Shown piece after piece: positions 7,836-46,815 of a DNA stretch of 58,777 bases (positions are counted from its first letter, which is position 1; each line of letters opens with the position of its first letter). The stretch comes from Patescibacteria group bacterium (GTDB lineage Bacteria; Patescibacteriota; Kazan-3B-28; UBA10110). The translations under genes were made by a program, and so were the position numbers. The notes beneath the pieces are model-generated. The model did not search any database, was not told the origin of the DNA, and saw only the letters and a list, made by a program, of their open reading frames with translations. The DNA lies in the NCBI GenBank assembly GCA_016936175.1, contig JAFGPN010000003.1:1-58777 (forward strand), in the 5' to 3' direction.

Positions 7836-7957
7836 ATCCCGTTAGAGATAGGCAACCTAGCGTTACCCTTGGGCTGTTAGTGATATAAACATGCGGTTTA
7901 TCATTTAAATTGATTGATGTTCGAATGTGGTTGCCGTTAGGTGATCTCTAACGGGAT
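7836..7957. mobile_element. 122-bp cassette with 14-bp perfect terminal inverted repeats ATCCCGTTAGAGAT
   Basis: Arms at 7836-7849 and 7944-7957; the lysS TAG stop lies inside the right arm. Confidence 0.65.
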
Positions 7958-9417
7958 TTTACAAATGGGAATAAAACTGCTTCGCGGATTGAATCGGCAT
8001 TGGTTAAGAGCGCTACCAATCTATCAATACCCATCCCCCACCCTGCTGTCGGTGGCATACCGTATTCCAATGCTTTTACAAAATCACTATCCATTGAGTG
8101 GGCCTCTTTGTCACCGGCTTTTTTCTGCCGAGCTTGCTCGCGGAATCTTTCCGCTTGATCAATAGGATCGTTTAACTCGGAAAAGGCGTTGACCAACTCC
8201 ATCCCCATCACCACTAACTGGAACCGTTGCACTTTAGTCTGATCACCCTCTTTTTGCTTAGCTAAGGGTGAAAGATCTAACGGATGATCGACCAAAAACA
8301 TCGGATTTACAAGTTTGGGACGAACTTTTTCTTTATACAGCTCGTCGATTAGCTTGCCCCTACCAGCACAGCCTGCAAAGGTTAAGTGAATCTTTTTGGC
8401 TCTTATAGCCGCCTGTAATTTTTCGGCCGTTAAATGTTTATCAATATCGATACCGGTTTCTTTTAAGATTAACTCGCGAAAACTTTTAACTGGCCACGGC
8501 GTTTTAAAATCTATGGTCTTATCGCCAAACTTTACTTTAGTCGTGCCCAAAACCTTTTTAATTACTCCACTCAACATCTTTTCGGTTAACTTCATCAGCT
8601 CACGATAGTCCGCGTATGCCTGATAAAACTCCAACATTGTAAAATCTTGCAGATGCTGAGTAGAGACGCCTTCGTTTCTAAATACGCGCGCAAATTCGAA
8701 TACGCGCTCAAATCCACCCACAATTAAGCGTTTTAGATAAAGCTCGGGCGCTATCCTAAGATAAACATCAGCCCCTACCGCCTCGTAGCGAGTCTTAAAG
8801 GGGGTGGCCAGAGCCCCACCCGGCATCGGTTGCAACGCCGGCGTGTCTACCTCAATATAGCCCTGCTCCAACAAGAATTCGCGGATGGCCTGAACTAAGT
8901 GATGGCGGATCAAAAACCGCTCTTTAACCGCGGGATTAAAGATTAAATCTAAATAACGCTGGCGGAATCTGGTCTCCTGATCGGTTAAGCCGTGCCATTT
9001 CTCCGGCAGTGGCCTTAATGATTTAGCCAGCAATACCAGTTTTCTAACCAATAGGGTTTTCTCGCCTTTTTTGGTAAGCGTTGCTATCCCCGTTACCTGA
9101 ACGATATCCCCCACATCAATCAGCTCTAAATCGGCATAGGCCTTGGCGCCGATATCATCTTTTTTAAACATGATTTGAACATCGCCGTGTCCATCTTTGA
9201 TCAAGCCAAAAGTCAGCCCGCCAAACTCTCGTTTGGCCATCAATCGACCAGCCAAGATAACGGATTTATGGCTTCGTTTTAAAGCATTAAACCGTTCGAC
9301 AAAGCCCAACACCGGCAACGTGCGATCGGTAGTCGAAGGATACGGGTTAACCCCTTTATCCCTCAATCTTCGTAGCTTATCCTTTCGGACAGCGATAATC
9401 TGATCTAAGCTCTCCAT
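7948..9417 (-). CDS. lysS: Lysyl-tRNA synthetase, class II
   Basis: YLRIAPELYLKRL, FRNEG, YGMPPTAGWGMGIDRL. Confidence 0.98.
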   Translation of the reverse strand: MESLDQIIAVRKDKLRRLRDKGVNPYPSTTDRTLPVLGFVERFNALKRSHKSVILAGRLMAKREFGGLTFGLIKDGHGDVQIMFKKDDIGAKAYADLELIDVGDIVQVTGIATLTKKGEKTLLVRKLVLLAKSLRPLPEKWHGLTDQETRFRQRYLDLIFNPAVKERFLIRHHLVQAIREFLLEQGYIEVDTPALQPMPGGALATPFKTRYEAVGADVYLRIAPELYLKRLIVGGFERVFEFARVFRNEGVSTQHLQDFTMLEFYQAYADYRELMKLTEKMLSGVIKKVLGTTKVKFGDKTIDFKTPWPVKSFRELILKETGIDIDKHLTAEKLQAAIRAKKIHLTFAGCAGRGKLIDELYKEKVRPKLVNPMFLVDHPLDLSPLAKQKEGDQTKVQRFQLVVMGMELVNAFSELNDPIDQAERFREQARQKKAGDKEAHSMDSDFVKALEYGMPPTAGWGMGIDRLVALLTNADSIREAVLFPFVKSR

Positions 9418-9454
9418 AACCCCTCAATTATATCAGAGGTATGTAGATTTCATG

Positions 9455-9710
9455 CCCTTGCCGAGCCAAGCGTGAGCCGGCTTCTTCTCCCCCGCCATCG
9501 GAGGAGCCAAGCCCCATCCCCATTGAGCCAATTATGTCAGCCAATGGTAAAACTACCGCTAGGGCGCGATCGTTGTTTGAGGCCAGCTCCACAGGGAGAT
9601 GGCCGAGTTCGATCAATATAAGCCCAGTAAGGTAGTTTTGCCTTTTGGGTAATAATTGGCGATTGGGAAGCGACTTTGGTTACTTTCCTCAAGCGGAAAG
9701 TAACAATTAA
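9455..9710 (-). repeat. ~250-bp structured repeat, copy A
   Basis: Shares CCCCGCCATCGGAGGAG, GTTGTTTGA-hairpin-GAGTTC and TTTGGTTACTTT..AAAGTAAC blocks with copies at 17728, 19393 and 58617. Confidence 0.75.
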
Positions 9711-9729
9711 ATTAAGAAGGGATGTTGTA

Positions 9730-9933
9730 CGATTCTGGACCTCTCGATAAGCTCGAGACATGGCAAGCCAGAATGACGGCGAAACTAGATTCCTGCCTGC
9801 GCAGGAATAACGGGGAAAGGGCCTGGATTCCGGATCAGGTCGGGAATGACAATTCAACAAAAAGAAAAAGACCCCGAAGGTTCAGGGTCAATTCCAAATG
9901 ATATTGTAGGATCCTGGACGAAGCCAGGATGAC
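9730..9933. repeat. Cluster of four GTCAT-family REP palindromes
   Basis: GATTCTGG..CCAGAATGAC, GATTCC..GGAATGAC, GATCCTGG..CCAGGATGAC. Confidence 0.8.
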
Positions 9934-9955
9934 GCCGCACGGTAAATGGCGTCAA

Positions 9956-10420
9956 TTAGTGGACTTCTAGGATAGTGTACTGTCTTGCCCCGTCGGGTGT
10001 AGCAATATCAACCTTGTCGCCCTTTTTCTGCCCCATCAGAGCCCGACCAATCGGTGACTCATTACTAATCTTGCCTTCCGCCGGATTAGACTCATTCGAG
10101 CCGGTAACGATAAATTCTTTGGTCTGGCCATCTATCTCCACTTTTACGGTGGACCCTAAGGCTACCCGACCATTGACCCGATTATTGTCATCAATCACTT
10201 TAGCTACCTTCAACATCGACTCGATTTCGACAATGCGACCCTCGATAAAAGATTGCTTGGTCTTAGCCTCTTGATACTCAGCGTTTTCGGAAAGATCGCC
10301 AAACTCCCGCGCTTCTTTGATTTTAGCGGTAATCTCTTTTCGCTCCTCTAATAATTCGGAGAGCTCAGTCTTTAATTCCTCTAAACCGGCTCGCGATATG
10401 TACAAATCCTGTTGTGTCAT
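9956..10420 (-). CDS. greA: Transcription elongation factor GreA
   Basis: GDLSENAEY, ISNESPIGRALMG. Confidence 0.97.
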   Translation of the reverse strand: MTQQDLYISRAGLEELKTELSELLEERKEITAKIKEAREFGDLSENAEYQEAKTKQSFIEGRIVEIESMLKVAKVIDDNNRVNGRVALGSTVKVEIDGQTKEFIVTGSNESNPAEGKISNESPIGRALMGQKKGDKVDIATPDGARQYTILEVH

Positions 10421-10510
10421 AGGTGATATTTAACAATAAACAAACCCGCCCCCTTATAGATAATGTATATATTTAAGCGAAGAGGAGCATATCTGTCAAT
10501 AGGATAAAAA

Positions 10511-11359
10511 TTAGCTCCTAGAGCTTAAAATCTTGGCCGCCTGGACGACATTATTAATCAAGGCACTCACGGTCAGCGGACCAACACCACCCGGCACTGG
10601 CGTAATGTGGCTGGCCCGCTTAGCAGCATCAGCAAAATTAACATCCCCCACCCAGTGTTTACCCAGCTTATTGATGCCAGCATCAATCACTACCGCACCC
10701 TTTTTTATCATCTTCCCCTTAATCAAATGAGGTACTCCGGCAGCAGTAATTAAAATATCCGCCAATACAGTTTTGTTCTTAAGGTTTTTGGTCGATTCGT
10801 TTAGAATGGTAACACTCGACTTTAAATTAGCTAGCAAGATACTTATCGGCATACCCGCCACTTTACCAAAGCCCACCACCGTTACATCTTTGCCTTTTAA
10901 GGTAATGTGATATTTTTCGATTAACTGCCAGATGCCTAAAGCCGTAGCCGGAATAAATCGAGGCTGACCTAGCTCCAATAAACCAAGGTTTTCTGCCGTT
11001 AAACCATCTACATCCTTAAGCGGGTGGATTGCGTTAATTAACTTTACTGCATCAAATTTTTTGGGTACCGGTAACTGAACGATAATTCCGTGAACTTTTT
11101 TATTACGATTAAAGGCGGCCACAGCCCGTAATATCTCTGCCTCGCTTACTCTGCCCGGGAAATCCTTTAGCCAAAAATTAATTCCTAACTTGTGGCATAG
11201 TTGGCGTTTTTTCTCGACGTAGATACGCGAATCCGGCGTAGCTCCTACCATAATTATTGCTAAACCCGGCGTAATTTTTTTACGCCGCAACTTAGCTACT
11301 TCAAGCTTTAGTTCGGCATGTTGTTCGGTAGCTAATTTTTTTCCATCCAGTAAAATCAT
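10511..11359 (-). CDS. folD: Methylenetetrahydrofolate dehydrogenase/cyclohydrolase
   Basis: GIIVQLP, KDVDG, TPVPGGVGPLTV. Confidence 0.96.
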   Translation of the reverse strand: MILLDGKKLATEQHAELKLEVAKLRRKKITPGLAIIMVGATPDSRIYVEKKRQLCHKLGINFWLKDFPGRVSEAEILRAVAAFNRNKKVHGIIVQLPVPKKFDAVKLINAIHPLKDVDGLTAENLGLLELGQPRFIPATALGIWQLIEKYHITLKGKDVTVVGFGKVAGMPISILLANLKSSVTILNESTKNLKNKTVLADILITAAGVPHLIKGKMIKKGAVVIDAGINKLGKHWVGDVNFADAAKRASHITPVPGGVGPLTVSALINNVVQAAKILSSRS

Positions 11360-11366
11360 GGGGGAA

Positions 11367-11470
11367 TTTCTAATATCTAGTTTCTAATGCCTAAATAATG
11401 TCCAATCCCCAGTGTCTAAATTCTCGGGATTTAATTAAAAATTAGCAATTAGACATTAGGCATTATTGGG
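11367..11470. repeat. Inverted arrays of 7-mer repeats (TTTCTAA/TATCTAA ... TTAGACA/TTAGGCA)
   Basis: Same architecture at 14890-14927, 23808-23905 and 24655-24762. Confidence 0.75.
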
Positions 11471-11473
11471 AGG

Positions 11474-12553
11474 TCAGATCCATTTGAGAATATCCTTGTA
11501 GGTAACAGCCAAAATGAGCAACATTAGTAACGCAAATCCGATAGTATGTACAACCCCTTCGACTCGTTGTGAGATTTTTTTGCCACCCCTAACCACTTCT
11601 AAACCAATAAACAGTAGCCGACCACCGTCTAAGCCAGGGAAGGGAACTAAATTAAGAATGCCCAGGTTAATCGACAGAAAGATAACAAACTGCAACATTC
11701 GTAAAGCGCCTAACTGTACCAAATCTGCAGTAATGCGAGCGATTCCTACCGGACCCGCCAACTCGGGAGGGATGCTGGCAGTGGTAAACAACTTATAGAT
11801 TAGGCCGACTACCGCCATCACCACTACCAAAATTATCCGCCAGGTCTCTTGCAGGGCAATCCAGGGTACCTGCCACCAGACATACCTCACCTGTTGAATC
11901 GCCCGATCGATCCAAGCCCCTATCACTACCCCGTCGGGTGTAACCGTAGGTTCGACCGATACTGCAATCTGTTCGTTCGCCCGTTCTATCTGTAGTTCAA
12001 CGGTGTTACCAGATTTGTCGGCCAGTAAAGATTTAAACTCAGCTGGGCTGTTGGCCGTCACCCCATCAACCGACAAGATGTAATCTCCTGGTTGAAGTTG
12101 GGCGGCTTGAGCCGGAGATTTGTCCGCCACCTGTAGCACCATTACCTTGCCCTGCACCTGAGTATCGGGAGCATAATCCTCCACAGGACCAATCATCGGT
12201 GGCATCGATAACCAAAACCCAACCATTAAAAGTACCCAAGCTAGCGCGAAGTTCATTAGTATTCCACCGCCCATCACCCAAAACCGCGCTCCAGGGCTTT
12301 TACTAATTAAAGAATGTTTGCCAGCTTTTTCATTTGCGCTCTCACCATAAAGTCGAACAAATCCGCCAAACGGAATCCAGTTAATCGAATAAATGGTGCC
12401 GTTTTTCTTAATCCCCCAAATTCGAGGCGGCATACCAAATCCGAATTCTTCCACCCTAACACCACTGCGTTTAGCAAAATAAAAGTGACCCAGTTCGTGT
12501 ACTAAGATAACTAAAGTAAAAACAACAATAAACGCAATAATGGCTACAAACAT
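11474..12553 (-). CDS. rseP: RIP metalloprotease RseP with PDZ domain
   Basis: HELGH, NLVPFPGLDGG. Confidence 0.95.
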   Translation of the reverse strand: MFVAIIAFIVVFTLVILVHELGHFYFAKRSGVRVEEFGFGMPPRIWGIKKNGTIYSINWIPFGGFVRLYGESANEKAGKHSLISKSPGARFWVMGGGILMNFALAWVLLMVGFWLSMPPMIGPVEDYAPDTQVQGKVMVLQVADKSPAQAAQLQPGDYILSVDGVTANSPAEFKSLLADKSGNTVELQIERANEQIAVSVEPTVTPDGVVIGAWIDRAIQQVRYVWWQVPWIALQETWRIILVVVMAVVGLIYKLFTTASIPPELAGPVGIARITADLVQLGALRMLQFVIFLSINLGILNLVPFPGLDGGRLLFIGLEVVRGGKKISQRVEGVVHTIGFALLMLLILAVTYKDILKWI

Positions 12554-13624
12554 TTAGCTAACCCGGTTAACAATAAAATCTATCCATTGGCCAAACAGTT
12601 GTTTAGCTCGCGAATCAGATAGGCACTCAAGCGCCGCCCGAGCTTTGTCAGCATATTTATTTGCCAGCGCCTCGGCGTAATCGATTGAACCTAACTCTTT
12701 TAGTATAGTATGAATCTTCATCACCTCTGTTTCTGATGCCTGTTCATTGCCCAATACGGATAATAACTGCTTTTTCTGGTCTGCGTTAGCGGTGCGATAA
12801 GCATGCGCGATTATCACGGTCTTTTTACCCTCGCAAACATCCGACCCGATTGGCTTTCCTAATTCTTTTTCATCTCCCACTACCCCCAAAATGTCATCTC
12901 TAAGCTGAAACGCTAAACCAGCGTCTAAACATATCTGTTGAATAGTTTTAACGGTGGGGTGCTCTTTATCTAGCTTATTGATCCCGATCATTGCTCCTGC
13001 CTGTCCGGCAAAACCAAAAGTAGAAGCAGTTTTTCTGGCTAACATCTCCAAGATCATCTCCTCTGTTACCATCTCAAACGACATCTTGGAATAATCTAAG
13101 TCCAAAGCCTGACCAGACATCACCCGCGGCACCCAGTAGTTGGTCATCTCGTGAATGATATAACGAAAAACCGCGGTATCAACCTTGTCGCTGAGTTCAT
13201 TTATCATACTTATCGCCCAGGCTTGCTGTAGGTCCCCCACTAACATCGCCATGCTTCTGGCATATTGTTCTAATTCGGCGCGATCTTTGATTTTGGGTTT
13301 ATTAAATTCGCGGTAGTAGGCATGCACACTCGGGCCGCCTCGACGCAAATCGTCATTATCGATCAAATCATCGTGCACCAATGTCCACGTATGCGACATC
13401 TCGATTGCTGCTGCTGCTGGAAGCGCTAACTTGGAATCGCCACCAGCCGCTTCACACGCCAACATCAAAATGGCCGGCCTAAGCATCTTACCGCCCCGAG
13501 CAGTATACAGGCTGGCTCCATCTGCTACATATTTGGGCATCAACTGTAGCCGAAACGGACTACTCAAGATGTAATCGGCAATCAACCGCGCCTTGTCTTG
13601 TAGTTCCGACTTAAGATCAACCAT
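12554..13624 (-). CDS. Trans-polyprenyl diphosphate synthase, GGPP synthase-like
   Basis: HDDLID.DDLRRG (FARM), FQLRDD (SARM), EGKKT. Confidence 0.9.
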   Translation of the reverse strand: MVDLKSELQDKARLIADYILSSPFRLQLMPKYVADGASLYTARGGKMLRPAILMLACEAAGGDSKLALPAAAAIEMSHTWTLVHDDLIDNDDLRRGGPSVHAYYREFNKPKIKDRAELEQYARSMAMLVGDLQQAWAISMINELSDKVDTAVFRYIIHEMTNYWVPRVMSGQALDLDYSKMSFEMVTEEMILEMLARKTASTFGFAGQAGAMIGINKLDKEHPTVKTIQQICLDAGLAFQLRDDILGVVGDEKELGKPIGSDVCEGKKTVIIAHAYRTANADQKKQLLSVLGNEQASETEVMKIHTILKELGSIDYAEALANKYADKARAALECLSDSRAKQLFGQWIDFIVNRVS

Positions 13625-13629
13625 AAAAA

Positions 13630-14310
13630 CTATTTACCAAAATTTCGTTTTCGTTTAGCGTACTCACGAACAGCCTTGGATAGTTCCCGTCCCCCAAAGT
13701 CCGGCCACAAGGTATCGGTAAAATAAAGTTCGCTATATACGCTCTGCCACGGCAAAAAATTACTCAGTCGCATCTGACCACCGGTACGAATAATCATATC
13801 CAAATCTGGTAGCCCGGCTGTATCGAGATGAGCGGCTAAGCTTTTCTCGTCAATGCGACCATTAGCTCTGCTAGCTTTTTGCGCCGCGCGCGCTAGCTCG
13901 TCTCGACCACCATAACTTAAGGCAATCGTTAATACATCTCGCCGATGATGTTTAAGCCGATTAACTGATTTGTCTATAATGCTCTGTAAATTTTTAGGGA
14001 AATCTTTAACCCGACCGATTACTTTCAGCTGAACTTGCTCACGATCCATCTTGTCGGCGTATTCACGGATGGTTTTGCCCAAAAGCGTTAGCATGGCATT
14101 GACCTCGGTTTTATTACGCTTCCAATTTTCGGTCGAAAAAGCGAACACTGTTACGTGATGAATCCCCAGCTTTTTACAGGCCTGGGCAGTTCGGTCCAGC
14201 GCCTTAACTCCCTCTGCATGACCCAAGCCAACCGGTAGCCCTCTCTTTTTGGCCCACCGGCGATTGCCATCCATGATAATTGCCAGATGCTTAATCTGAC
14301 TCTTAGCCAT
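13630..14310 (-). CDS. uppS: Undecaprenyl diphosphate synthase
   Basis: IMDGNRRWA, FSTENWKR, IRTGGQMRLSNFL. Confidence 0.96.
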   Translation of the reverse strand: MAKSQIKHLAIIMDGNRRWAKKRGLPVGLGHAEGVKALDRTAQACKKLGIHHVTVFAFSTENWKRNKTEVNAMLTLLGKTIREYADKMDREQVQLKVIGRVKDFPKNLQSIIDKSVNRLKHHRRDVLTIALSYGGRDELARAAQKASRANGRIDEKSLAAHLDTAGLPDLDMIIRTGGQMRLSNFLPWQSVYSELYFTDTLWPDFGGRELSKAVREYAKRKRNFGK

Positions 14311-14318
14311 AGTATTAA

Positions 14319-16517: not shown

Positions 16518-16653
16518 GTTTAGTGTGGTGGGCGATACCCTCCTACATTCAATCTCATCGCAAATAGGTCATCAGCCTCTTGCGATATAGATTTCACTAC
16601 GAGCGGGCAGGCTGGATTCGACTCTGCTGTCCAGCAGAAGACTTTCGGACTTG

Positions 16654-16777
16654 CCCCGTTAGATTTCACTGGTGGTCGCAACAGGACTCGAACCTGTGAC
16701 CTTTCGGATGTGAACCGAACGCTCTAACCAACTGAGCTATGCGACCCCTTTGTCGCGACCTCGGAAATTTAACGGGG
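16654..16777. mobile_element. 124-bp inverted-repeat cassette containing tRNA-Val
   Basis: CCCCGTTAGATTTC (16654-16667) versus GAAATTTAACGGGG (16764-16777), 13/14 match. Confidence 0.55.
16670..16746 (-). tRNA. tRNA-Val(CAC)
   Basis: Full cloverleaf GGTCGCA...TGCGACC-ACCA; anticodon loop TTCACAT; GGTTCGAGTCC. Confidence 0.95.
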
Positions 16778-16893
16778 TGAATGAACCAAACGCTCTAACC
16801 AATCCCGAAGGGACCCCGTTGGGGCTGAGGTAATCGCCCTCGGCTAAATTATACACGAATACTTCCACCCAGCTCACTGATCAGGGCGGCTTG

Positions 16894-17593: not shown

Positions 17594-17727
17594 AGGACAC
17601 TGCCCTGAGCGAGCGTGGCATTCCCATCACCCTGTCATCCTGGAGACACTTTACTGCCGTAGGCTCTATAGATAGCTCATTCAGGATCCAGGCCGTGAGG
17701 CCGTTTTGTTTTTACCAATATCCTTTC

Positions 17728-18020
17728 GCTACCATTTTGCTCGCCCAAAACGGTAGCACCAAAAGGGCGGCCCGACTACACCAAGCTATCCGTAATGTAA
17801 AATATGGCTTACCGCTAATGGGTCGAACTCCCCAGCACTTAACTTAAGTGCTGGGTCAAACAACGATCCCGCGACGCCGATTTTACAAACGGCTCACGCT
17901 TGGCTCCGTAAGGGCATAAAAGTACGTTCCTCCTCCGATGGCGTAAATAAAAAACAGGCCGCTCGAGCCAATGGCGGAAAAACCACACGGCACAGGGGAT
18001 GCTTCTCCTCCAATGGTGAG
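17728..18020 (+). repeat. ~250-bp structured repeat, copy D (opposite strand)
   Basis: Reverse complement contains GCCATCGGAGGAG, GAGCCAAGCGTGAGCC and GATCGTTGTTTGA-hairpin-GAGTTCGA, as in copy A. Confidence 0.65.
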
Positions 18021-27800: not shown

Positions 27801-28253
27801 TCATTGATTGACTAACTTTTTAATCTCGGCTTGAAAATCGGTCACATCTACAAACTCGCGATAAACCGAAGCAAACCGAATATAAGCTACTTTATCTACT
27901 TTTTTGATGCCGGCTAAAACAATCTCTCCAATCTGACAGCTGGTGACCTCGGAATCATACTGCTCCATAATGTCGCGCACGATCCGATTAACTAAATTTT
28001 CGATAACGTTTTGGCTAATGCTAAGTTTTTCAAATGCTTTGTAAACTCCGCGCGCCAACTTATCTCGATCAAAATTTTCGCGGGATCCATTTTTCTTAAC
28101 TACCAACAAATTAGGCGATTCGATTCGTTCGTACGTAGTAAATCGATGGTGGCATCTATCGCATTCGCGCCGCCGCCTTATGCTTAACACATCTTCGATT
28201 TCACGCGAATCAATTACACTCGTTTCCCCTTTTTTACAGGCCGGACACTTCAC
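27801..28253 (-). CDS. nrdR: Transcriptional repressor NrdR
   Basis: CPAC..VIDSR..IRRRREC..C..RFTTYE; ATP cone; AYIRFASVYR. Confidence 0.97.
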   Translation of the reverse strand: MKCPACKKGETSVIDSREIEDVLSIRRRRECDRCHHRFTTYERIESPNLLVVKKNGSRENFDRDKLARGVYKAFEKLSISQNVIENLVNRIVRDIMEQYDSEVTSCQIGEIVLAGIKKVDKVAYIRFASVYREFVDVTDFQAEIKKLVNQ

Positions 28254-28382
28254 CCCGTTAGAAACTTAAAAAATAACTTCTGAAACTTTTGTGATAAAAA
28301 ATTTTGCATATCTTTATTGGTTGATTAGCGAGTAGTAAAAATAATTTACCAATTATTTTTACTACGAGGTTCTAATGGGGTG
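28251..28382. mobile_element. 132-bp inverted-repeat cassette at the nrdR start
   Basis: CACCCCGTTAGAA versus TTCTAATGGGGTG, 12/13 match; the nrdR GTG start is in the left arm; internal 15-bp perfect inverted repeat. Confidence 0.6.
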
Positions 28383-28392: not shown

Positions 28393-28440
28393 ACGCAAGA
28401 TGTTGTGTTGCAATTAACAACGTAACACAAAATATGGTGT
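28393..28440. promoter_or_regulatory. Tandem NrdR boxes
   Basis: ACGCAAGATGTTGTGT (28393-28408) and ACACAAAATATGGTGT (28425-28440), 32 bp apart, upstream of nrdR-nrdJ. Confidence 0.8.
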
Positions 28441-29751: not shown

Positions 29752-29998
29752 AAATCTTTTTTCTAATCAAATTGTCTGCTCCCACAAAACAAAACCGGCC
29801 AATCCCTCCCAAGTTATCCACCACAACCGGATTGTGGATAAGCCCCATTAGAGATTGCTCCCTACCCCGTCATCCTGAATTTATTTCAGGATCTATAGAT
29901 GCTGAAACGAGCCTGTCCGCGGACGCGGGATGCGGCCAGGGTTCAGCATGACAATTAACTTTTTATTGTTTATTGCCGGATCGGAAGCGGGGTAAGGC

Positions 29999-31213: not shown

Positions 31214-31271
31214 CCCGTTAAATCCTGCACTCATTATAGGTAAGAAGCCCCACTAAGACAAATCCGATATT

Positions 31272-32175: not shown

Positions 32176-32200
32176 CCCGTTAAAGATTGCCCACCACCTC

Positions 32201-33887: not shown

Positions 33888-34205
33888 CTATTTAATTAAA
33901 CTATCTGCATCAATCGGCTCCCACTCGCCATCCACTTCGCGATAGACCGTAAGATGGCTAACTTTTTCGTCCGGCGAATAGACATATTCATACTGCGCCG
34001 AGCTTTTACCACGGCGATGTGCCCCGGTTACCTTTTTATCTAAAATCGCTGGCCGCACCGTGCGCACCAGCTTAACTCTCCCGATCGGCGCCTCAAAGAT
34101 TATCGTTTCGATCTCGGACACATCTTCTTGCGTTTTCTCTCGCGAGAGCACCTTAAAATTCGTCAAAATCCGATCTAATACTTCTCCCCATTTATCATCT
34201 CTCAT
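33888..34205 (-). CDS. Hypothetical protein
   Basis: 105-aa ORF MRDDKW...; the ATG directly follows CTAACGGG. Confidence 0.75.
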   Translation of the reverse strand: MRDDKWGEVLDRILTNFKVLSREKTQEDVSEIETIIFEAPIGRVKLVRTVRPAILDKKVTGAHRRGKSSAQYEYVYSPDEKVSHLTVYREVDGEWEPIDADSLIK

Positions 34206-34491
34206 CCCGTTAGAAGCCCTTAGCAAAAAATAATTTTAACCGGTTTCGAATATATCGTTTACCCATAGCGGATTTGAGATATCGTTCTCGCGCCCTCGCA
34301 TCATCCCGCTCAAGAGACACTTCATAATAAATCAACTTCCACGGTGTTCCACAGATTTAGTTGATGTATTTTTATCGCCATTGTGGGTTAAAATTCTTTT
34401 TTACAGATCGTTGGTGAATCCAGTATACAGCTTCCCGTTGCGTTGACTAACCAGAACATAAATGTACCACTTAGATTGGATTCTAATGGGA
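34205..34491. mobile_element. 287-bp inverted-repeat cassette carrying a GIY-YIG gene
   Basis: TCCCGTTAGAA versus TTCTAATGGGA, 10/11 match; hisS TAG stop in the right arm, nuclease TAA stop in the left arm. Confidence 0.6.
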
Positions 34492-35810: not shown

Positions 35811-36707
35811 CTATCTCTCTCTCCGCCTACCCATCCATAACAAGATAGGAGCCGCAATAAAGATCGAAGAATAAGTTCCAATTACTATGCCAATTAGCAG
35901 TGCTAAAGTGAAAAACTTGAGGGTCGCACCGCCAAACAATGTCATCGCCAGCAATACTAACACCACCGTAAAAGAAGTATTAATAGAACGAACTACCGTT
36001 TCGGAGATACTATCATTACAGATGGTAATCAGGTCTTCGCCAGCCCGGCGACGGAGATTTTCCCGAATCCGATCAAAAGTAACAATGGTGTCGTGAACCG
36101 AGAAACCAAGCAGGGTTAACAAGGCGGCGATAAACATCCCATCCACTTCGGCCCCAAAATAATGGCTCATCACTGAGTAAGCTCCCAACAAAATAATCAC
36201 ATCATGAACCAAGGCAACCAATGCCCCAAAACCAAAATCCCACGAGGTCAGCGGTTTGGGCACTCGGCGAAAAGCATAAGCTAGATAAAGCATAATCCCC
36301 AACGCGGCGATGATTACGGCCAAAATCGCTTTTCTAACTATGTCGGCGCTAATCGTTGGGTCTACGCTCTCAAACCGCAACTCGGAAGCCTCGTCAAATT
36401 TAGTCTGGAGAAAGGCCAAGATGTCGTTCTTGTTTTGATTATCAATCTGAGCACTCCGGATAAAGTAGCGATCTCCCTCGGTTGATTGCGGAGCCACATC
36501 CAATCCAACCACTTGCTTATAAGCTTCGATAATCGCTGGTTTAACCTCTGCCCCATCTTTAGGACCAGCTAACTGCACCTCTAAATTAGTGCCACCAGCA
36601 AAATCAATTCCGGTGCGATAACCAAACACACTAATAGATGTGATACTAGACAGAATCAAGACCAACGAGACAATCAGCCAAATTTTACGAGCACCTAAAA
36701 TATTCAT
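35811..36707 (-). CDS. secF: Protein translocase subunit SecF
   Basis: GIDFAGGT, GFSVHDTIVTFDRIRE, RSINTS, GTYSSIFIA. Confidence 0.96.
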   Translation of the reverse strand: MNILGARKIWLIVSLVLILSSITSISVFGYRTGIDFAGGTNLEVQLAGPKDGAEVKPAIIEAYKQVVGLDVAPQSTEGDRYFIRSAQIDNQNKNDILAFLQTKFDEASELRFESVDPTISADIVRKAILAVIIAALGIMLYLAYAFRRVPKPLTSWDFGFGALVALVHDVIILLGAYSVMSHYFGAEVDGMFIAALLTLLGFSVHDTIVTFDRIRENLRRRAGEDLITICNDSISETVVRSINTSFTVVLVLLAMTLFGGATLKFFTLALLIGIVIGTYSSIFIAAPILLWMGRRRER

Positions 36708-36837
36708 CCCGTTAGAAATTCTTGGCGCAAAAATACTTTAGTTTTTTTACGCGCGCTAATTATTATGGAGTGAAGTGAGCAGTTATTCATCTTTAGTTAA
36801 TGGTTTAGGGTTATCTTCGACAAATTTCTAATGGGAT
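36706..36837. mobile_element. 132-bp inverted-repeat cassette between secD and secF
   Basis: ATCCCGTTAGAAATT versus AATTTCTAATGGGAT, 14/15 match; the secF ATG overlaps the left arm. Confidence 0.65.
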
Positions 36838-38160: not shown

Positions 38161-38204
38161 TGATATCTGTTGTCCCCCGTTAGTAACTACCTATTATTAA
38201 CACA

Positions 38205-39544: not shown

Positions 39545-39669
39545 CCCCATTAGAGATTCTTGGCAAAAATACAAGGTATTTTTGCGGCTCACCCTCTCGC
39601 CAACAGGGTATAATCTTGGTGGATGCTGATATCAACCCTTGCAAACATAATGGTAAATCTCTAATTGGG
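39545..39669. mobile_element. 125-bp inverted-repeat cassette at the thpR start
   Basis: CCCCATTAGAGATT versus AATCTCTAATTGGG, 13/14 match; the GTG start begins on the last base; internal TATAAT at 39609-39614. Confidence 0.55.
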
Positions 39670-41933: not shown

Positions 41934-41952
41934 GCCTGTTTTCGAAATCAAA

Positions 41953-42162
41953 ATGAAAGTAAATAGCAGGACTAACAAGAAAGTAAAAAGCACCTTTCTT
42001 TGGATAACTGAAGAGTGGCTTATTATTCTGATAGCCGTACTGATTCTCCTTGCTATTGCTATAAGCGCCGCCGGAGCAAGAACATTGCTTAATCCTACTA
42101 TTATCATTGGTCCTGGCCAAACGATGAGCGCGAGCGTGGCTGGCACCGAGGATCAGGAATAA
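41953..42162 (+). CDS. Small single-pass membrane protein
   Basis: 69 aa with a strong TM segment; follows the previous gene by 19 nt. Confidence 0.65.
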   Translation: MKVNSRTNKKVKSTFLWITEEWLIILIAVLILLAIAISAAGARTLLNPTIIIGPGQTMSASVAGTEDQE

Positions 42163-42178
42163 ACAAAAAACAACTGAT

Positions 42179-45100
42179 TTACTGTTGAGGAGGGAGTGAT
42201 TCTAGGGAAGCTAGAATCATTTTTTTATCTACACCAGCATGGCAATCCTCGCTCAAACTTAGCGCTCTTGTTAGGAACTCGCGAGCCTGAACGGAATCTT
42301 GTTTAGCTATAACTTCGCCCAAGAATCTATAGGCATCCATGGCCGATTGATCCATCCCTGCGCCAATAAATGCCTCGGCTTGTTTCGCGGTTGGGATAAT
42401 GAAATCCTCCAGATCAATATACCCATCAATATAATCCGCATACGCAGTTATATAAGTACCAATCATGCCGATCCGCTTGTCGTCTGACTTAATACTAGCC
42501 AACTTTGCTCTTGCAGATAAGGTATTGGGTTGCTTAGCACGCAGATAGCAATGTGCTAAATCAACACTAATGGCAGAAAATGTAACAATGTCTGTATTCA
42601 CAAAGAACTCATTTGCTTTATCTAGATAACCCTCTGCTGTAATAAAATCACCCAATGCTATATAAAGTGATCCCAGGCCAAGATTGCTCCAAGCTCGAGT
42701 CTTTGGACGAAACACCCGAGTGGTAATATCCAGAGAGCGGTCTAGTACAGCTTTGGCCCCGTTTTCATCACCCAACCCACGCATCACCTCTGCCTGATTA
42801 TTTAAATACAAGGCCTGGGCAGGTAGATCCCCATCTTGCTCGGCCAATGTTAAACATTCGCTATAGTAATTGTTAGCTAATTCTAACTCTCCAAGCCTCT
42901 GATGGATTATGCCCAAACCATTAAGAGAAGACCTAACGGCATCACGATCGCCAGTCATGCGAGCATAGTAAACCGCCTTCTCAACTAAGCCCTTAGCTCG
43001 GACCAAGTTATCGACCCCCTCTGATCTGCGATAATAAGCACCGATGCGTTTATAAGTATTGCTGAGATTAACAGCTATTAGTCTTCTAAAATTATCGGGT
43101 AATCTATCTAATTCACCCTCTTGTTCAAAGGGTTTTAGGATATCCAGCGCCACCTCGTAGTATTCTCGCGCCGCTCGTTCTGGCTCCTTATCCCCCACTC
43201 GCAGACCCAAATCAGATAGAATCCAAGCGTGATAAGCCGCCCACTCAACCGGGCGGGCTTCTCTCCCATCCTCCCCACCATAGTAACGATGAAATAGCTC
43301 GTGAGCCGATTCCAGTGTCGCCACTTCATCTGTTTGCCGGGCTAGACTGTTCCAGATAAACCGGATAAACAACAATCTTTCGAGTTGCTCTTTCACAGCC
43401 TCAAGTTTCTGCTGTTCACTCATCCCTGGGAAGCCCTGTCGCTCCAATTCATCAAAGGCTTGTACCCCACGCTCCAACACCGAGATAGCGCCAGACTCCT
43501 CACCATAGTTCCGTAATTGCCGGCCATACAGATCAGCGTATTCCAATATCTTAAATAGGTTGCCGCTGTTCTTAGCATGGAAAAACTTAGAAGATAGCTT
43601 ATCCTGCTTACCCGGATAGTCAGTTTCTAAAATAGTTAGGATAGCTTCGTGGGCGGAGTGTTTTTCTTCTATCTTGGCAATGTTGTTATAGATGGTTTCT
43701 TGAGTTATCCGGTGGACAAACCCAAAGTAGCCACCGTCCAAATCATCAATTACACTGTGGTCTAACATCTCCTCCAAACACATGTCTAAGCGCCGTTCCG
43801 GCATGCGGGTAATTTTAAGCAACATCGCCCGGCTTGATTCCAAACCTAAAATAGACATCGCTCGCGCCACCACCTGCGAGTTAGAACTTAGGGCGGCTAT
43901 CTTCTTTTCTTCGATATCTACAATGGTGCCAACCTTCTCCCATAACTCCTGCTGTTTTTCATCGGTTAGATAATAGTTGCGAGTAGCCTTAACCATCTCA
44001 GCGGTTTCGCCCGGCAACGGATAATCGCCAAAGTGCCACTTGCCGGTTTCGGGATGCTGGACAAACACGCTCACTCCCAAATCGGAGCTCATCGCCAAAT
44101 GAGATAAAATCTCTTGCACGTAAAAGATGTTGCCGTGCGAGGCATCTTTAGAAAACACCCGCGAAATAACCTTGGCGGCCGCTAATTTGTTGCGCGAGAG
44201 TTCCCCCTCGTCCATCGAAAAGACCGAGCAGACCAGCGGCCATACCCACTCCTTGTTATTTTCAAACCAGGTGATCTGCGCGTTGCGTAGTTTAAGATAG
44301 TAATCGCGCTTGGCCGCATCGGTCGCCCCTTCTCCCGGATACTCCGGCGGCTCAAACGCTGGGAACGGCTCGATATCCAGCTGATAGGTCTGCTCCGGCA
44401 GATTATGTTTAAGCCCATCAATAATCACTTTTTCGACATCATTAGCCGAAGGCCGGGTGGGAACAGCCCAAACCAGCCCATCGTCAGCGGTCTCGGTCAT
44501 AAATCCAACCAGCAGATCGGCGGATTGTTTATCGATAAATTGCCAATCATCCACAAAGATTACTGGAACCTCCTTGCCAACTGATTGACGATTGAGCCGA
44601 AGTATATCTTGCATTAACTTAAGCGTCTCGGCGCGCTGTTCGGTTCTATCCAACCACTTAACCCGATCGGTTGGCATAAAGGCTGTATCTAACACCGCAT
44701 TTAATAGCGCCATCCGCTCTGTAATATCTGCCGGCAATTCTCGGCTTAAAATGCGCGCCTCTAAATCTTTCGGGTCTTCGATATCTTCCGGAATGTCTAA
44801 TAATTGATGAACAAACTGTTTGGCCGTGCTCAATGGCAATTTGCGATTGGCTTCATCAGACCGGACATCAATCTTGTATATCCGGCCAGCTTCTAAGTTG
44901 TTGGCGATAGATTTAGAAACCACCGCGGTTTTACCTACACCAGCCTCACCCTCAACCACCAAAATCTGACTTTTACCGGTAGCTATAGCCAAATCAATAA
45001 CCTCGTCAATCTTACCCTCTTCTTTCTCGCGACCGACTATCTTCTCGACTTCGGCGTAACGCCCGGCTCGATAATCTATTTTGTCTACTATAAAAGTCTC

Positions 45101-46618
45101 GACCGCGCCCACGCCACGTAGCTCCAGCTCTCCTCCCTCACTACACCGCAAGCGATGGCTGGCTCTTCGGTGGGTTGTACCGCTAATTACTACTCCGTTT
45201 TCCGGCGCCGACTGCATTAATCTCGCCGATTCGTTTACTCGTTTACCCACTCGGGTAAAGGTTTGATTCCCATCAACTCCGGCTACCCCAGAAAAGGCAT
45301 AATCGGTAGAAATACCCGCTCTAAATGGAAGGTTATGCTTGACTAAAACCTGGCCAGATTCGTAGGTGGCTCGAGTAGCATGATATTCGTTGCTCGGCCC
45401 GGAAAATGTAGAATAAACAACGCCCTCACCAGTGATTCGCTCCACCGAACCGTTGTTCTGCTCGACAATGTGCAATATCCTACTAATTGGTTGGTTCAAT
45501 TGCTGGTACAACTCTGCCTCGCTCTGTCCGTTGCTCAACTTCTCTGTCATTTGGTATAGACCAATTACCTTAGTAAAGGCGGTAGAGACCCGCGGGTACT
45601 CCCACGACGGCTTAAATTCAACTGGTCTCCCCTCTTCGAAAGCAGAGACTACCGCTGATTTCATTTCATCACGCCGATCCCGGGGAATGTGCGCCTCGTA
45701 AAATCGATTCAACTCCTCGAGGGGCACGTCTGTTTCTACCTCGCGGAGCTCGATTGCGGTAAGGTTTGGTTTGTCCTCGCCGTGCAGAGTAGATAGCACA
45801 TAGTTACCGGCTTCGATACCCTTAAAATATGATTTGGGTAGAAGTTGACGCACCGATGAACTAACAGCTACCTGATGTTTCTCCGGATCGGCAAACCGCT
45901 GAAGGGCATCCGCTCTTGGGATTACCTCGCCAAATACGGCAAAACATCTGAGATAGTCATCACCTAAACTGGTAACCACTAAATCGTCATCTCCCTTATT
46001 AGTACAATCTACGCCTACCCGAAAAGTTAGATCGATCGACTCGTCCTTAAATTTGACGGGAGGCAAAGTTTTGGCGGATTCCTGAAACTGGCTAGCTACA
46101 AACACTGCCCGACGAACTGCCTCGGCTGAGTTTTCGTCTGGCAGGCTGGGAAAAAATATCCGCCTGCCGTCACCTTCGGCGGTAACCATCGTACCACCGT
46201 ACTGTTCGGCAATACCCAGTAGCCTGGCATCGGCCTCTTCCATCAGCAACCCCAACTGTTCGCCAGCCAATTTTTCGCCCACCTCATCAGCTAATCGAGT
46301 GGTGTGTTTAGAAAAATCTTTGGCATCGGCAGATATTAAAGCTCCGTGTAGATGACGAAATCCTTCGTGTAAATCATACGACAATAACTCCGGGGTATGC
46401 CCGTGGAGTAGCTTAAGAAATTCACGAGTCTGGTAAGGATTAACTTCCGTAGATTTTTCTACCTCCACCAACTCCAAACCGGCCGGTTCGACCTCTGTCG
46501 ATGCCGACCTACCATCGTTCGGCGGTTCCCCATTATGGGACGGTTCCGCTAAAACAATTCCATCCGGATTAGTGGGAACCTGGTCTGGTTCTTGCTTGAT
46601 ATCGCCCTCGTTGGTCAT
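42179..46618 (-). CDS. Tandem class III nucleotidyl cyclase + STAND ATPase + TPR protein (soluble adenylyl cyclase-like)
   Basis: C1: ISADAKDFS, AEGDG. C2: VGKRVNESARLM. Walker A GEAGVGKT, Walker B IFVDD. TPR-like C-terminus. Confidence 0.85.
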   Translation of the reverse strand: MTNEGDIKQEPDQVPTNPDGIVLAEPSHNGEPPNDGRSASTEVEPAGLELVEVEKSTEVNPYQTREFLKLLHGHTPELLSYDLHEGFRHLHGALISADAKDFSKHTTRLADEVGEKLAGEQLGLLMEEADARLLGIAEQYGGTMVTAEGDGRRIFFPSLPDENSAEAVRRAVFVASQFQESAKTLPPVKFKDESIDLTFRVGVDCTNKGDDDLVVTSLGDDYLRCFAVFGEVIPRADALQRFADPEKHQVAVSSSVRQLLPKSYFKGIEAGNYVLSTLHGEDKPNLTAIELREVETDVPLEELNRFYEAHIPRDRRDEMKSAVVSAFEEGRPVEFKPSWEYPRVSTAFTKVIGLYQMTEKLSNGQSEAELYQQLNQPISRILHIVEQNNGSVERITGEGVVYSTFSGPSNEYHATRATYESGQVLVKHNLPFRAGISTDYAFSGVAGVDGNQTFTRVGKRVNESARLMQSAPENGVVISGTTHRRASHRLRCSEGGELELRGVGAVETFIVDKIDYRAGRYAEVEKIVGREKEEGKIDEVIDLAIATGKSQILVVEGEAGVGKTAVVSKSIANNLEAGRIYKIDVRSDEANRKLPLSTAKQFVHQLLDIPEDIEDPKDLEARILSRELPADITERMALLNAVLDTAFMPTDRVKWLDRTEQRAETLKLMQDILRLNRQSVGKEVPVIFVDDWQFIDKQSADLLVGFMTETADDGLVWAVPTRPSANDVEKVIIDGLKHNLPEQTYQLDIEPFPAFEPPEYPGEGATDAAKRDYYLKLRNAQITWFENNKEWVWPLVCSVFSMDEGELSRNKLAAAKVISRVFSKDASHGNIFYVQEILSHLAMSSDLGVSVFVQHPETGKWHFGDYPLPGETAEMVKATRNYYLTDEKQQELWEKVGTIVDIEEKKIAALSSNSQVVARAMSILGLESSRAMLLKITRMPERRLDMCLEEMLDHSVIDDLDGGYFGFVHRITQETIYNNIAKIEEKHSAHEAILTILETDYPGKQDKLSSKFFHAKNSGNLFKILEYADLYGRQLRNYGEESGAISVLERGVQAFDELERQGFPGMSEQQKLEAVKEQLERLLFIRFIWNSLARQTDEVATLESAHELFHRYYGGEDGREARPVEWAAYHAWILSDLGLRVGDKEPERAAREYYEVALDILKPFEQEGELDRLPDNFRRLIAVNLSNTYKRIGAYYRRSEGVDNLVRAKGLVEKAVYYARMTGDRDAVRSSLNGLGIIHQRLGELELANNYYSECLTLAEQDGDLPAQALYLNNQAEVMRGLGDENGAKAVLDRSLDITTRVFRPKTRAWSNLGLGSLYIALGDFITAEGYLDKANEFFVNTDIVTFSAISVDLAHCYLRAKQPNTLSARAKLASIKSDDKRIGMIGTYITAYADYIDGYIDLEDFIIPTAKQAEAFIGAGMDQSAMDAYRFLGEVIAKQDSVQAREFLTRALSLSEDCHAGVDKKMILASLESLPPQQ

Positions 46619-46666
46619 AACACCTGATTATACCTGATATAGAATTATCCGCTCCCAGAGCTAACT

Positions 46667-46695
46667 ATCCTACCACTTCTCCCCTCTTTTGTCAA
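46667..46695 (-). promoter_or_regulatory. Promoter for the cyclase gene
   Basis: TTGACA-17-TAGGAT; a second TATAAT at 46627-46632. Confidence 0.55.
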
Positions 46696-46815
46696 CCCCG
46701 TTAGAAGTCCGGAGAAGCCCTGGGAATAATGCAGAGCCACAGCGCATTAGTTGTCGTTTCACTATCCGCCAACCCCATTACATTAGCCAATCTCATCAGC
46801 GACTTCTAACGGGGT
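46695..46815. mobile_element. 121-bp cassette with 15-bp perfect inverted repeats ACCCCGTTAGAAGTC
   Basis: Arms at 46695-46709 and 46801-46815. Confidence 0.65.

Follow-up and report, generated by a model that had tools for sequence, protein, structure and literature searches.

The seven inverted-repeat pairs in the 58,777-nt contig sequence analysed here (the window) are most probably small DNA transposable elements of one family, which occurs in the ultra-small Kazan-group (CPR) Patescibacteria and comprises full-length copies that bear a nuclease gene and short copies. No description of the mobility of this arm-pair family was found in the searchable literature. The earlier note on this DNA had taken the pairs for candidate mobile elements that target gene boundaries, and this is borne out by 4-bp target duplications and by empty sites in relatives.

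Structure and distribution of the element copies

All seven pairs are present where the earlier note had placed them, with arm matches, in order along the window, of 14/14, 13/14, 12/13, 10/11, 14/15, 13/14 and 15/15 (Table 1). The motif CCCGTTAR occurs 17 times in the window compared to 4.2 +/- 2.0 times in shuffles, none of which got to 17, and CCCGTTAG/CTAACGGG is the top over-represented 8-mer across the whole 670-kb assembly. Genome-wide, 18 convergent arm pairs are spaced 60-135 bp apart and no reverse-order pair was found at the same spacing; with randomly placed arms, 2000 trials averaged 0.4 pairs and never exceeded 5. The arm-core consensus of all copies is YCCCGTTAGA ... TCTAACGGGR (inverted). 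Copies of 77-136 bp contain no gene or, rarely, a tRNA gene, and full-length copies of about 275-290 bp contain a single gene, encoding a single-domain GIY-YIG nuclease of about 85 aa. ORF-less and full-length copies have only the arms in common, save for one 30-nt match at 87%.

Table 1. Element copies, tRNA remnants and solo arms in the window
Feature	Position	Strand	Remarks
ORF-less copy, subfamily A, lysS-serS junction	7837..7956	.	arms 14/14; arm provides lysS TAG stop; flanks TTTA (7833-7836) and TTTT (7957-7960), a decayed TAAA target duplication
Resident tRNA-Val 3' remnant: CCGAAAG..., T-arm interrupted ... ATCGCCCACCA	16526..16653	-	
Cargo copy enclosing tRNA-Val(CAC)	16654..16777	-	tRNA 16670-16746 by ARAGORN and Rfam; flanks CTTG and TGAA, no target duplication
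Resident tRNA-Val 5' remnant, acceptor stem to anticodon-loop TTCA	16778..16839	-	aligned to G001 tRNA-Val
ORF-less copy occupying nrdR 5' UTR	28253..28381	.	terminal G + TG = nrdR GTG start; flanks inverted, TTCA and TGAA
Solo arm (GGATTTAACGGG followed by ATG), TATAAT box to ftsA start	31214..31221	-	common to G002
Solo arm adjoining yqeY ATG, next to GTCATCCTG-type repeat	32176..32183	-	not in G002
Full-length copy, hisS to next ORF	34205..34491	-	target duplication CTCA
Decayed GIY-YIG nuclease gene within full-length copy	34228..34472	-	translation with one TAA stop and a frameshift
ORF-less copy, subfamily D, secD-secF junction	36707..36836	.	duplication TTCA = TGAA of secF ATGAA
ORF-less copy, subfamily D-related, upstream of thpR	39545..39669	.	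terminal G + TG = thpR GTG start; flanks CTTG and TGAA, no duplication; orthologous copy in G002
ORF-less copy, subfamily E	46696..46814	.	arms 15/15; duplication TCAA (46692-46695, 46815-46818)
Truncated end, like ORF-distal end of full-length copies (CCCCGTTAGAGTTAGGAAgCG...)	52604..52645	-	not in G002

Several structural readings of the earlier note need revision. The proposed length constraint stands as a clustering per subfamily (77-78, 82, 104-136 and 276-290 bp) but not as a single length rule, and the interiors, described as unrelated, do differ in their cores, whereas subfamilies have 25-33 nt of subterminal sequence in common at 90-100% identity; the copy at 46696..46814, e.g., has the same 28-nt ends as a second copy, located on contig 13, and a different core. 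Cargo is not free, since most copies have conserved, family-specific subterminal sequence, and tRNA genes and the nuclease gene were the only genuine cargo seen. A plus-strand G-T wobble is not a general rule either (15 arm-core wobbles in sense vs 20 in antisense in two genomes). The solo arms are a mixed set: four (31214, 32176, 52606 and 29843) represent truncated or related ends, the counterpart of the one at 38176 is missing in the closest relative, and the matches at 4220, 25191, 26883 and 35175, which fall within long ORFs, look like chance matches. Their interpretation as excision scars is not supported: relatives show clean empty sites, and what the solo arms represent is either a truncated end or a chance match.

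Insertion sites and repair of the interrupted genes

Insertion mostly duplicates a 4-bp target of the T-N-N-A type, and perfect duplications flank four of the seven window pairs. Perfect 4-bp direct repeats, each with a chance probability of 1/256, were found in 12 of 24 pairs in this genome, in 33 copies in G000 and G002 together, and in 5 of 12 in the distant genome G013. Over the 146 arm contexts, T (101) and C (34) predominate at position -5, and A (110) and G (33) at position -2. About a third of the copies ('class 2') lack a duplication and display an invariant C-N-R-G tetranucleotide at one side.

Comparison of the lysS-serS and secD-secF junctions, a check proposed in the earlier note, and of the nrdR junction revealed clean empty alleles in close relatives. 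The orthologous lysS-serS copy in L002 has TAAA on both sides, its deletion restores ...FVKDK* and the ATG, and the empty sites of L004, L012 and L018 are exactly the L002 junction after removal of the element and one repeat; L010 is flanked by TAAG/TAAG instead of TAAA/TAAA, which indicates separate insertions. The secD-secF site is empty in G001, G005, G011, G003, G006, G004 and most of family f2, and the identical secF TGAA is filled by other subfamilies in G008, G007 and G024; this start-codon TGAA has received at least four independent insertions of different subfamilies, interspersed with empty relatives. The nrdR site is empty in G001 (...cactATGAAATGT) and holds three different elements in G000, G002 (a 77-bp subfamily-B copy) and G024 (a subfamily-F copy).

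The gene names assigned earlier (lysS, serS, secD, secF, nrdR, hisS, thpR/LigT, ftsA and yqeY) are correct, and the overlap of arms with start and stop codons is confirmed in the sequence. The last base of the element (A or G) together with the duplicated TG.. makes a new ATG or GTG start, and its CCCGTTAG is able to provide an in-frame TAG stop, which replaces the stops of lysS and hisS. The full-length copy provides the hisS stop with one arm and re-forms the ATG of the downstream ORF with its terminal A; the secF ATG is likewise re-formed by the terminal A of the copy at 36707..36836. In tRNA genes, the cargo copy takes the place of the broken resident gene. The enclosed tRNA-Val(cac) is the sole one in the assembly and its acceptor stem (GGGTCGC) is unlike that of the resident gene, whose 5' remnant has a 22-nt insert in the D-loop; the tRNA-Val of G001 is intact and element-free, with an acceptor stem (GGGCGAT/ATCGCCC) matching the resident remnant. 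The start-codon target (A/G)TGAR, when reverse-complemented, gives the tRNA target, TTCA/CTCA of the anticodon loop. The insertions that persist are those in which the element mends its own damage. Sequestration of start codons by a putative mRNA stem, as the earlier note had suggested, is possible.

Candidate mobilising enzyme and rival explanations

A GIY-YIG gene between the same ends, for which the earlier note had advised a search, was found, and the window itself holds a decayed copy at 34205-34491. Its gene matches PF01541 in two pieces (E 4.8e-10 and 6e-3) with the stop inside and shares 86% identity with its G002 ortholog, which lies in a 283-bp copy of the element with its frame intact. 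Intact ORF-bearing copies with perfect arms are present in six related genomes (G000, G001, G002, G010, G012 and G013) from two families of the order. ORFs lying between CCCGTTAG arms group into a single clade (7 rows; support 87/96), a degree of clustering reached by 0 of 500 shuffles of the labels, and those with CCCCGTAGAG or GTCATYC arms belong to other clades; a passenger ORF inherited together with the arms would be expected to give the same pattern. The genome encodes 11 intact small GIY-YIG ORFs.

We infer that the GIY-YIG nuclease is the likely mobilising enzyme. If it acts like the Ssn family, the two arms would pair in single-stranded DNA into a stem that the enzyme recognises, with a nick placed some 4 nt to the 5' side of the arm, and the offset of the two nicks might then be the 4 bp that are later duplicated. 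In this proposal each strand would present an identical cleavage context, since the outer bases of T-N-N-A read alike on both, and stem recognition would keep the arms complementary within a pair while leaving the inner bases free to vary between subfamilies. The transposition chemistry is incomplete, because a hydrolytic GIY-YIG nuclease is unable to rejoin DNA, and the C-N-R-G of class-2 copies is not accounted for by the model.

The short copies might instead be MITEs moved in trans by a conventional transposase, e.g., a DDE enzyme making 4-bp duplications, an explanation to which we give a small but real chance. Such an enzyme may reside on a phage, a plasmid or an unassembled contig (the assembly is about 90% complete), with the GIY-YIG gene as only a passenger or as a free-standing homing endonuclease settled between the element's ends. 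Terminal inverted repeats with 4-bp duplications at YNNR sites are typical of DDE enzymes (IS5 and IS1182 groups) and fit the pattern observed here, the scarcity of sequence common to ORF-less and ORF-bearing copies beyond the arms points in the same direction, and G008 and G009 have 10-15 short copies yet no intact close homologue of the nuclease. However, Y1, DDE_Tnp_1 and rve transposases have no match in the genome, the only multi-copy ORFs of at least 120 aa in G000 or the 97%-complete G002 are DGR reverse transcriptases (two in the genome), nuclease clades track arm types across genera, and the nuclease gene is found inside the same arms in two families of the order.

That the pairs are host regulatory or processing hairpins of mRNA and pre-tRNA, kept by selection and not themselves mobile, is improbable, and as a sole explanation it is contradicted by the target duplications, the clean empty sites in congeners and the repeated independent gains. 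They could be RNase III-type processing stems, sequester start codons or stabilise 5' ends: the arms flank intergenic spacers, a tRNA and entire 5' UTRs, subfamily B copies start exactly 12 nt past a TATAAT box and finish at the ATG, gene-relative orientation is uniform in subfamilies B and D (9/9 each), and class-2 flanks add G.U pairs to the stem, doing so solely in the sense strand. Yet copies destroyed a resident tRNA gene, full-length copies hold a nuclease gene, the subfamily E core does not fold better than shuffles (z +0.7 to +2.2), and the core wobble has no strand bias. Some of the inserted copies may secondarily have been co-opted, which is likely in the case of subfamily B. The earlier analogy with tyrosine recombinases had drawn on the GTTRRR-like core, and integron-like cassettes with core sites GTTAGA/TCTAAC would also agree with the different interiors of close relatives at one site (lysS, nrdR), which resemble cassette exchange; we regard this as very improbable and have abandoned the analogy, because the core-site order is opposite to attC, the copies are single and dispersed with no array, attI or intI, the genome has one tyrosine recombinase only (314 aa), and site-specific recombination does not make 4-bp target duplications.

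Comparison with known systems

As a transposable element family, the window copies resemble bacterial MITEs and above all the Correia elements (CREE) of Neisseria, which are also ORF-less units of 100-150 bp that end in inverted repeats and are flanked by short duplications of the target, located at gene junctions, co-transcribed and able to provide promoters or processing stems. No cognate transposase is known for the Correia elements, whereas here there is a candidate autonomous partner whose only gene is a GIY-YIG nuclease; the duplication is 4-bp TNNA instead of TA, the arms are just about 12-15 bp and co-vary within pairs, and tRNA cargo occurs. With REPIN-RAYT and the 'peel-and-paste' IS200/IS605 elements the family has in common paired inverted repeats folding as a single-strand hairpin, compensated arm changes and a small nuclease gene between the same repeats. 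Class-2 copies are like IS608 in that one side shows a tetranucleotide of the target, the other side a tetranucleotide borne by the element, and neither is duplicated. The genome, however, has no HUH/Y1 transposase, most copies have a 4-bp duplication, and the enzyme is hydrolytic (GIY-YIG) and not a covalent-intermediate transposase. A GIY-YIG nuclease is tied to tRNA genes also in phage T4 (SegB, among the free-standing homing endonucleases of tRNA clusters), and 'split-and-replace' mobile ORFs likewise disrupt a resident gene and provide the replacement; the tRNA cargo copy of the window differs in lying within inverted arms without a nuclease gene, and the family also inserts at start and stop codons of protein genes with target duplications.

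The closest known system pairs the Ssn nucleases with SRM/NTS hairpin repeats (Chenal et al. 2025, Nat Commun 16:2388, PMC11893778). SsnA-type nucleases bind the single-stranded form of the hairpin repeat and cleave a few nt upstream of it, even if the stem is formed from two separate oligonucleotides (PMC11893778). Both systems have a single-domain GIY-YIG protein of about 90 aa encoded between copies of its own repeat, many dispersed intergenic repeat copies, co-variation of nuclease and repeat, and a stem that can form from two strands not joined to each other; another GIY-YIG ORF of the genome studied here lies next to a canonical NTS. In contrast to the local 20-50-nt hairpin of Ssn, the stem of the window family is split, with arms 50-270 bp apart that bound the unit, its core (CCCGTTAG) is unrelated to ATTCCC..GGGAAT, and its protein, with 40% identity to the NTS-type protein, belongs to a clade of its own. 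An IS-like origin or mobility was only hypothesised for Ssn/SRM, with no target duplications, empty sites or cargo (PMC11893778); the window family goes beyond this in documenting all three.

Paired arms, their ends and their distribution

The window corresponds to contig 12 in an assembly of 670 kb and 18 contigs; its LysRS is 90% identical to that of a 'candidate division Kazan' MAG and 88% to that of a Patescibacteria MAG. The earlier note had described seven pairs of inverted arms with the core CCCGTTA...TAACGGG, and we confirm their positions, their arm matches (11-15 nt at all seven) and the gene names attached to them. The suspected enrichment is real: the window has 17 occurrences of CCCGTTAR where 4.2 are expected, and CCCGTTAG, the arm-type word that names the family, is the top over-represented 8-mer of the genome. 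Partner distance is likewise constrained, with 18 convergent pairs 60-135 bp apart genome-wide and none in the reverse order (random mean 0.4; none of 2000 trials reached 18). A plus-strand wobble, proposed from the window pairs, did not hold as a general rule, the arm cores showing 15 sense and 20 antisense cases. Exact paired arms were found in 22 of 41 related genomes, chiefly of the Kazan order (reversed-pattern control, 0), with at least 24 paired copies per genome and a dispersed arm repeat.

Locations of paired arms and of neighbouring or related features
Feature	Location	Target duplication	Remark
Paired arms	window 7837-7956	TTTA/TTTT, one base off
Paired arms	window 16654-16777	none	encloses tRNA-Val(CAC), sole such gene in the assembly
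Double mini-hairpin CCCCAACGGGGTCCCTTCGGGA, 22 nt	window 16800-16821 (-)		in D-loop of broken resident tRNA-Val
Fragments of other high-copy intergenic repeats with GTCATCCTGG	window 17631-17695; 17716-17812		dozens of 85-90% matches in two congeners
Paired arms	window 28253-28381
Two NrdR boxes (ACACNATATNTTGTGT-like)	window ~28395-28440		upstream of nrdR itself; element between boxes and start
Sister-family (CCCCGTAGAGAAATTT) locus	window 29843-29860		further loci on contigs 4, 6 and 20 of the congener G002
Paired arms, 287 bp	window 34205-34491 (-)	CTCA, perfect	GIY-YIG gene with one stop and one frameshift
Paired arms	window 36707-36836	TTCA, perfect	subfamily D end at 36707-36740
Paired arms	window 39545-39669	none
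Paired arms	window 46696-46814	TCAA, perfect
GIY-YIG ORF flanked by canonical Neisseria-type NTS CGTCATTCCCGCGCAGGCGGGAATCCAG	source genome contig 1, 21385-21721
DGR reverse transcriptases, paralogous	source genome contig 13 (~39955, reverse-complement coordinates); contig 14 (~18343)		away from elements
Tandem partial duplications, subfamily B copy and tRNA-Met cargo copy	G002 contig 1, 60514-60672; contig 4, 123931-124092

Elements fall into length classes of 77-78, 82, 104-136 and 276-290 bp, and copies of 77-136 bp hold no ORF, being short units bounded by terminal inverted repeats. That the interiors are unrelated is true of the cores, which do not align, but not of the subterminal 25-33 nt beside each arm, which are 90-100% identical within each of the subfamilies, A to F, into which the copies sort; for instance, two copies whose cores differ, one at 46696-46814 in the window and one on contig 13, share 28 of 28 nt at both ends. 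Local hairpins are present in the ends of subfamilies A and B. Shared ends and unaligned cores are most simply read as the result of long-term, element-level selection confined to the ends. The idea that the cores hold structured RNA was rejected, since those of subfamily E fold no better than, and even worse than, dinucleotide shuffles (z +0.7 to +2.2); consensus folds of A, B, D and E on both strands yielded hardly more than the arms and, in D, a single A/T-rich hairpin, and a search for known RNA families (Rfam, gathering score) returned four tRNAs and nothing else. Diversification driven by a diversity-generating retroelement (DGR) is contradicted by the differences between cores, which by inspection are not adenine-specific; the two DGR reverse transcriptases of the genome are listed in the Table.

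Insertion sites, codons and tRNA genes

With the element taken as one base, CCCGTTA...TAACGGG and one base, perfect 4-bp direct repeats flank 12 of the 24 pairs in the source genome and 5 of 12 in a distant relative (G013); the 33 perfect repeats catalogued in the source genome and its congener G002 are nearly all T-N-N-A. Among 146 arm contexts, 101 have T and 34 have C at position -5, 110 have A and 33 have G at position -2, and C or T stands at position -1. Orthologous sites are polymorphic for presence and absence at the lysS-serS, secD-secF, nrdR and tRNA-Val junctions, and a comparison for empty sites found such alleles in relatives at both lysS-serS and secD-secF. In four relatives lysS runs ...GTnAAAGAyAAATAA with the serS ATG immediately next, whereas the relative L002 carries an element between two TAAA; once it and one of the repeats are taken out, F-V-K-D-K-stop-ATG is recovered exactly. 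With the element inserted, lysS closes with ...K-S-R-TAG, and its stop comes from the arm. L010, which is more distant, has TAAG as both repeats, matching its own lysine codon, and its insertion is therefore separate from that in L002.

Most of the 26 genomes of the order that were compared have secD followed directly by ATGAA... at the secF junction. The identical TGAA is occupied, each time with a TGAA repeat, in the source genome and G002 (subfamily D), in G008, in G007 and in G024 (subfamily A), and since congeners of each occupied genome are empty (G001; G003 and G011), the site must have been gained at least four times. At nrdR, G001 is empty, and three different subfamilies, one each in the source genome, G002 and G024, separate the NrdR-box promoter from the start codon; lysS similarly holds subfamily A in the window and D in G002, so that one site can bear different subfamilies in close relatives with the flanks intact. 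The family is thus real, mobile and hairpin-ended, and the mobile element proposed in the earlier note stands in outline, though not in mechanism.

The last base of the element is A or G and, with a duplicated TGAA or TGAG, yields ATG or GTG. The start-codon overlap noticed before is accordingly a regenerated start at secF, nrdR, thpR and the ORF at 34205, and also at the solo arms of ftsA and yqeY; the stop-codon overlap at lysS and hisS arises from a TAG that CCCGTTAG provides in one frame. The enrichment at gene boundaries is explained by a genome about 90% coding, in which insertions survive at codon-restoring sites. Subfamily D has GAGG(A) about 11 nt ahead of the regenerated ATG; in gene orientation its end (36707-36740 in the window, and other copies) reads GCGCCGAGGATTTCTAACGGG directly before ATG, and the Shine-Dalgarno-like GAGG is therefore brought in with the element. 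Immediately upstream of this region is an A/T-rich hairpin that shows compensatory changes.

About a third of the copies lack a duplication (class 2), among them those at 16654 and 39545 in the window, all 77-bp subfamily B copies and the tRNA carriers. One of their flanks is target-derived (TGNN or xxCA) and the other is always C-N-R-G, mostly CAAG; against empty sites they are plain insertions of the element plus four C-N-R-G bases. Several subfamily B copies and one D copy make up the whole 5' UTR, running from exactly 12 nt past a TATAAT box to the ATG, and subfamilies B and D each have all nine of nine copies in the same orientation relative to genes. Candidate readings of the origin of this class are a single-strand insertion route like that of IS608, selection against an upstream AUG, and G.U pairs that extend the stem on the sense RNA.

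Some copies carry a tRNA gene. The flanks of the pair at 16654-16777 are two parts of another tRNA-Val, broken at TTCA in the anticodon loop, whose acceptor stem, GGGCGAT/ATCGCCC, also occurs in G001, where the gene is intact and free of the element; the cargo tRNA differs from this resident in acceptor stem and T-stem. A copy on contig 18 with tRNA-Met splits a resident tRNA-Met after loop YTCA, the reverse complement of ATGA, and the halves match an intact gene of G013; in G010 a copy with tRNA-Arg lies in the T-loop of a broken tRNA-Arg. The breaks at YTCA/TTCA and the start-codon ATGA thus make both targets one DNA word on opposite strands. A tRNA intron was rejected, because ARAGORN with introns allowed finds the inner tRNAs only and the outer genes are broken at several places. 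The resident tRNA-Val has further inserts in the T-arm and acceptor junction, and a partial tRNA copy in G002 has the same D-loop mini-hairpin. Where a genome has hardly any DNA to spare, a parasite that rebuilds start and stop codons and replaces the tRNA genes it has broken can persist, and in annotations many starts and ends of CPR genes and many tRNA 'pseudogenes' are products of such insertions.

The GIY-YIG gene

A search for a GIY-YIG gene flanked by the same ends, as the earlier note had suggested, found one decayed in the window, with an intact ortholog in G002, and intact ones elsewhere. The copy on contig 1, with perfect arms, encodes 85 aa at 14036-14293 (PF01541, E 3.8e-17 over residues 1-67) with the Tyr, Tyr, Arg, His and Glu motif residues; its type has UPF0213 BH0048 as nearest solved structure (E 8e-5), and an intact ORF with perfect arms also occurs in G001, G002, G010, G012 and G013. 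The source genome has 11 intact small GIY-YIG ORFs. A tree of 33 such ORFs groups the seven with CCCGTTAG arms in one clade (support 87/96; none of 500 label shuffles was as clustered), those with CCCCGTAGAG arms in a second and those with GTCATYC arms in a third. GTCATYC-type repeats are abundant (43 sites in the window, 189 in the genome). A sister family with CCCCGTAGAGAAATTT arms (one T fewer) has short copies of 65-67 bp, ORF-bearing copies of about 310 bp and its own GIY-YIG clade; the 'solo arm' at 29843 aligns to a copy of this family in G002.

A longer partner with the same arms as the short copies thus exists and encodes GIY-YIG only. The short copies are not plain deletion derivatives of it, as the sole extended end match is 30 nt at 87%. 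Across 26 genomes nuclease presence and copy number are weakly associated, close homologues being confined to copy-bearing genomes and absent from 11 of 20 of those. A conventional transposase was sought in the genome as Y1 (PF01797), DDE_Tnp_1 and rve without a match, and no ORF of at least 120 aa is multi-copy besides the two DGR reverse transcriptases. By association, the role of the nuclease as mobilising enzyme is well supported but unproven.

Comparison with known systems

The short ORF-less units, terminal inverted repeats, fixed 4-bp duplication (class 2 excepted) and site polymorphism resemble MITEs and other non-autonomous elements of this build. Integron cassettes have the order R''-L''...L'-R', lie in tandem arrays beside intI/attI and make no target duplication; here the core order is reversed relative to RYYYAAC...GTTRRRY, the copies are dispersed and flanked by 4-bp duplications, and the genome has a single tyrosine recombinase, which contradicts the likeness to tyrosine-recombinase sites drawn earlier. 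REPIN-RAYT and IS200/IS605 depend on a cognate HUH Y1 transposase and insert without duplication, whereas PF01797 is unmatched in this genome and most copies duplicate 4 bp. Correia elements, with 26-bp terminal repeats, a TA duplication and a consensus specific to Neisseria, differ from arms of 12-15 nt, unrelated in sequence, with a TNNA duplication. We know of no DNA transposon dependent on a GIY-YIG nuclease alone.

In the literature searched, GIY-YIG elements with terminal repeats and target duplications, and MITEs in Patescibacteria, are undescribed; nearest is the Ssn/SRM system (PMC11893778). Ssn proteins are single-domain GIY-YIG nucleases that bind a hairpin repeat (NTS/SRM) as ssDNA only and cut a few nt upstream, also when the stem is built from two oligonucleotides (Chenal et al. 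2025, PMC11893778). Each gene lies between copies of its own repeat, a layout the authors call IS-like, with no duplications, empty sites or cargo reported, and the manner of spread of the dispersed repeats was left open (PMC11893778). The window and its relatives add the missing comparative evidence, namely target duplications, clean empty sites, independent insertions that have hit one start codon again and again, and cargo. With these, the mobility hypothesis can be put to a direct test, for which a protein of 85 aa and a substrate of 120 bp suffice.

Ssn-like cutting of ssDNA a few nt upstream of a hairpin is compatible with the 4-bp duplication and with the bases conserved at -5 and -2. 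Both arms would then form one split recognition stem, and this could explain why they are complementary within a pair; the duplication would be the expected distance of the cut from the stem, and the T-N-N-A rule might follow from a repeat whose outer bases, upstream of the arm, read alike on either strand. If the arms are halves of one hairpin, anything between them would therefore be mobile. We regard it as an even call whether the elements belong to a hitherto unrecognised class of prokaryotic mobile elements with a single-domain GIY-YIG nuclease of ssDNA, similar to Ssn, as sole protein and with split-hairpin halves as arms around nothing, a nuclease gene or a tRNA gene, elements which survive by restoring start or stop codons or overwriting a resident tRNA. 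If so, this could be a new transposon type, at about 280 bp among the smallest autonomous elements, and transposition would be the biological role of some or more of the widespread Ssn family.

An ORF flanked by NTS on contig 1 indicates that the published Ssn/SRM system coexists with the CCCGTTAG family in the source genome; the two nucleases are 40% identical (E 1e-14), and the CCCGTTAG type forms a separate, well-supported clade. Like Ssn (about 90-100 aa), the CCCGTTAG-family protein is a single-domain GIY-YIG, and its gene has the cognate repeat on both sides and in many dispersed copies; unlike the two local hairpins of Ssn/SRM, the family has one split stem. In our reading it is a sister of Ssn/SRM, with the recognition stem divided into two distant arms.
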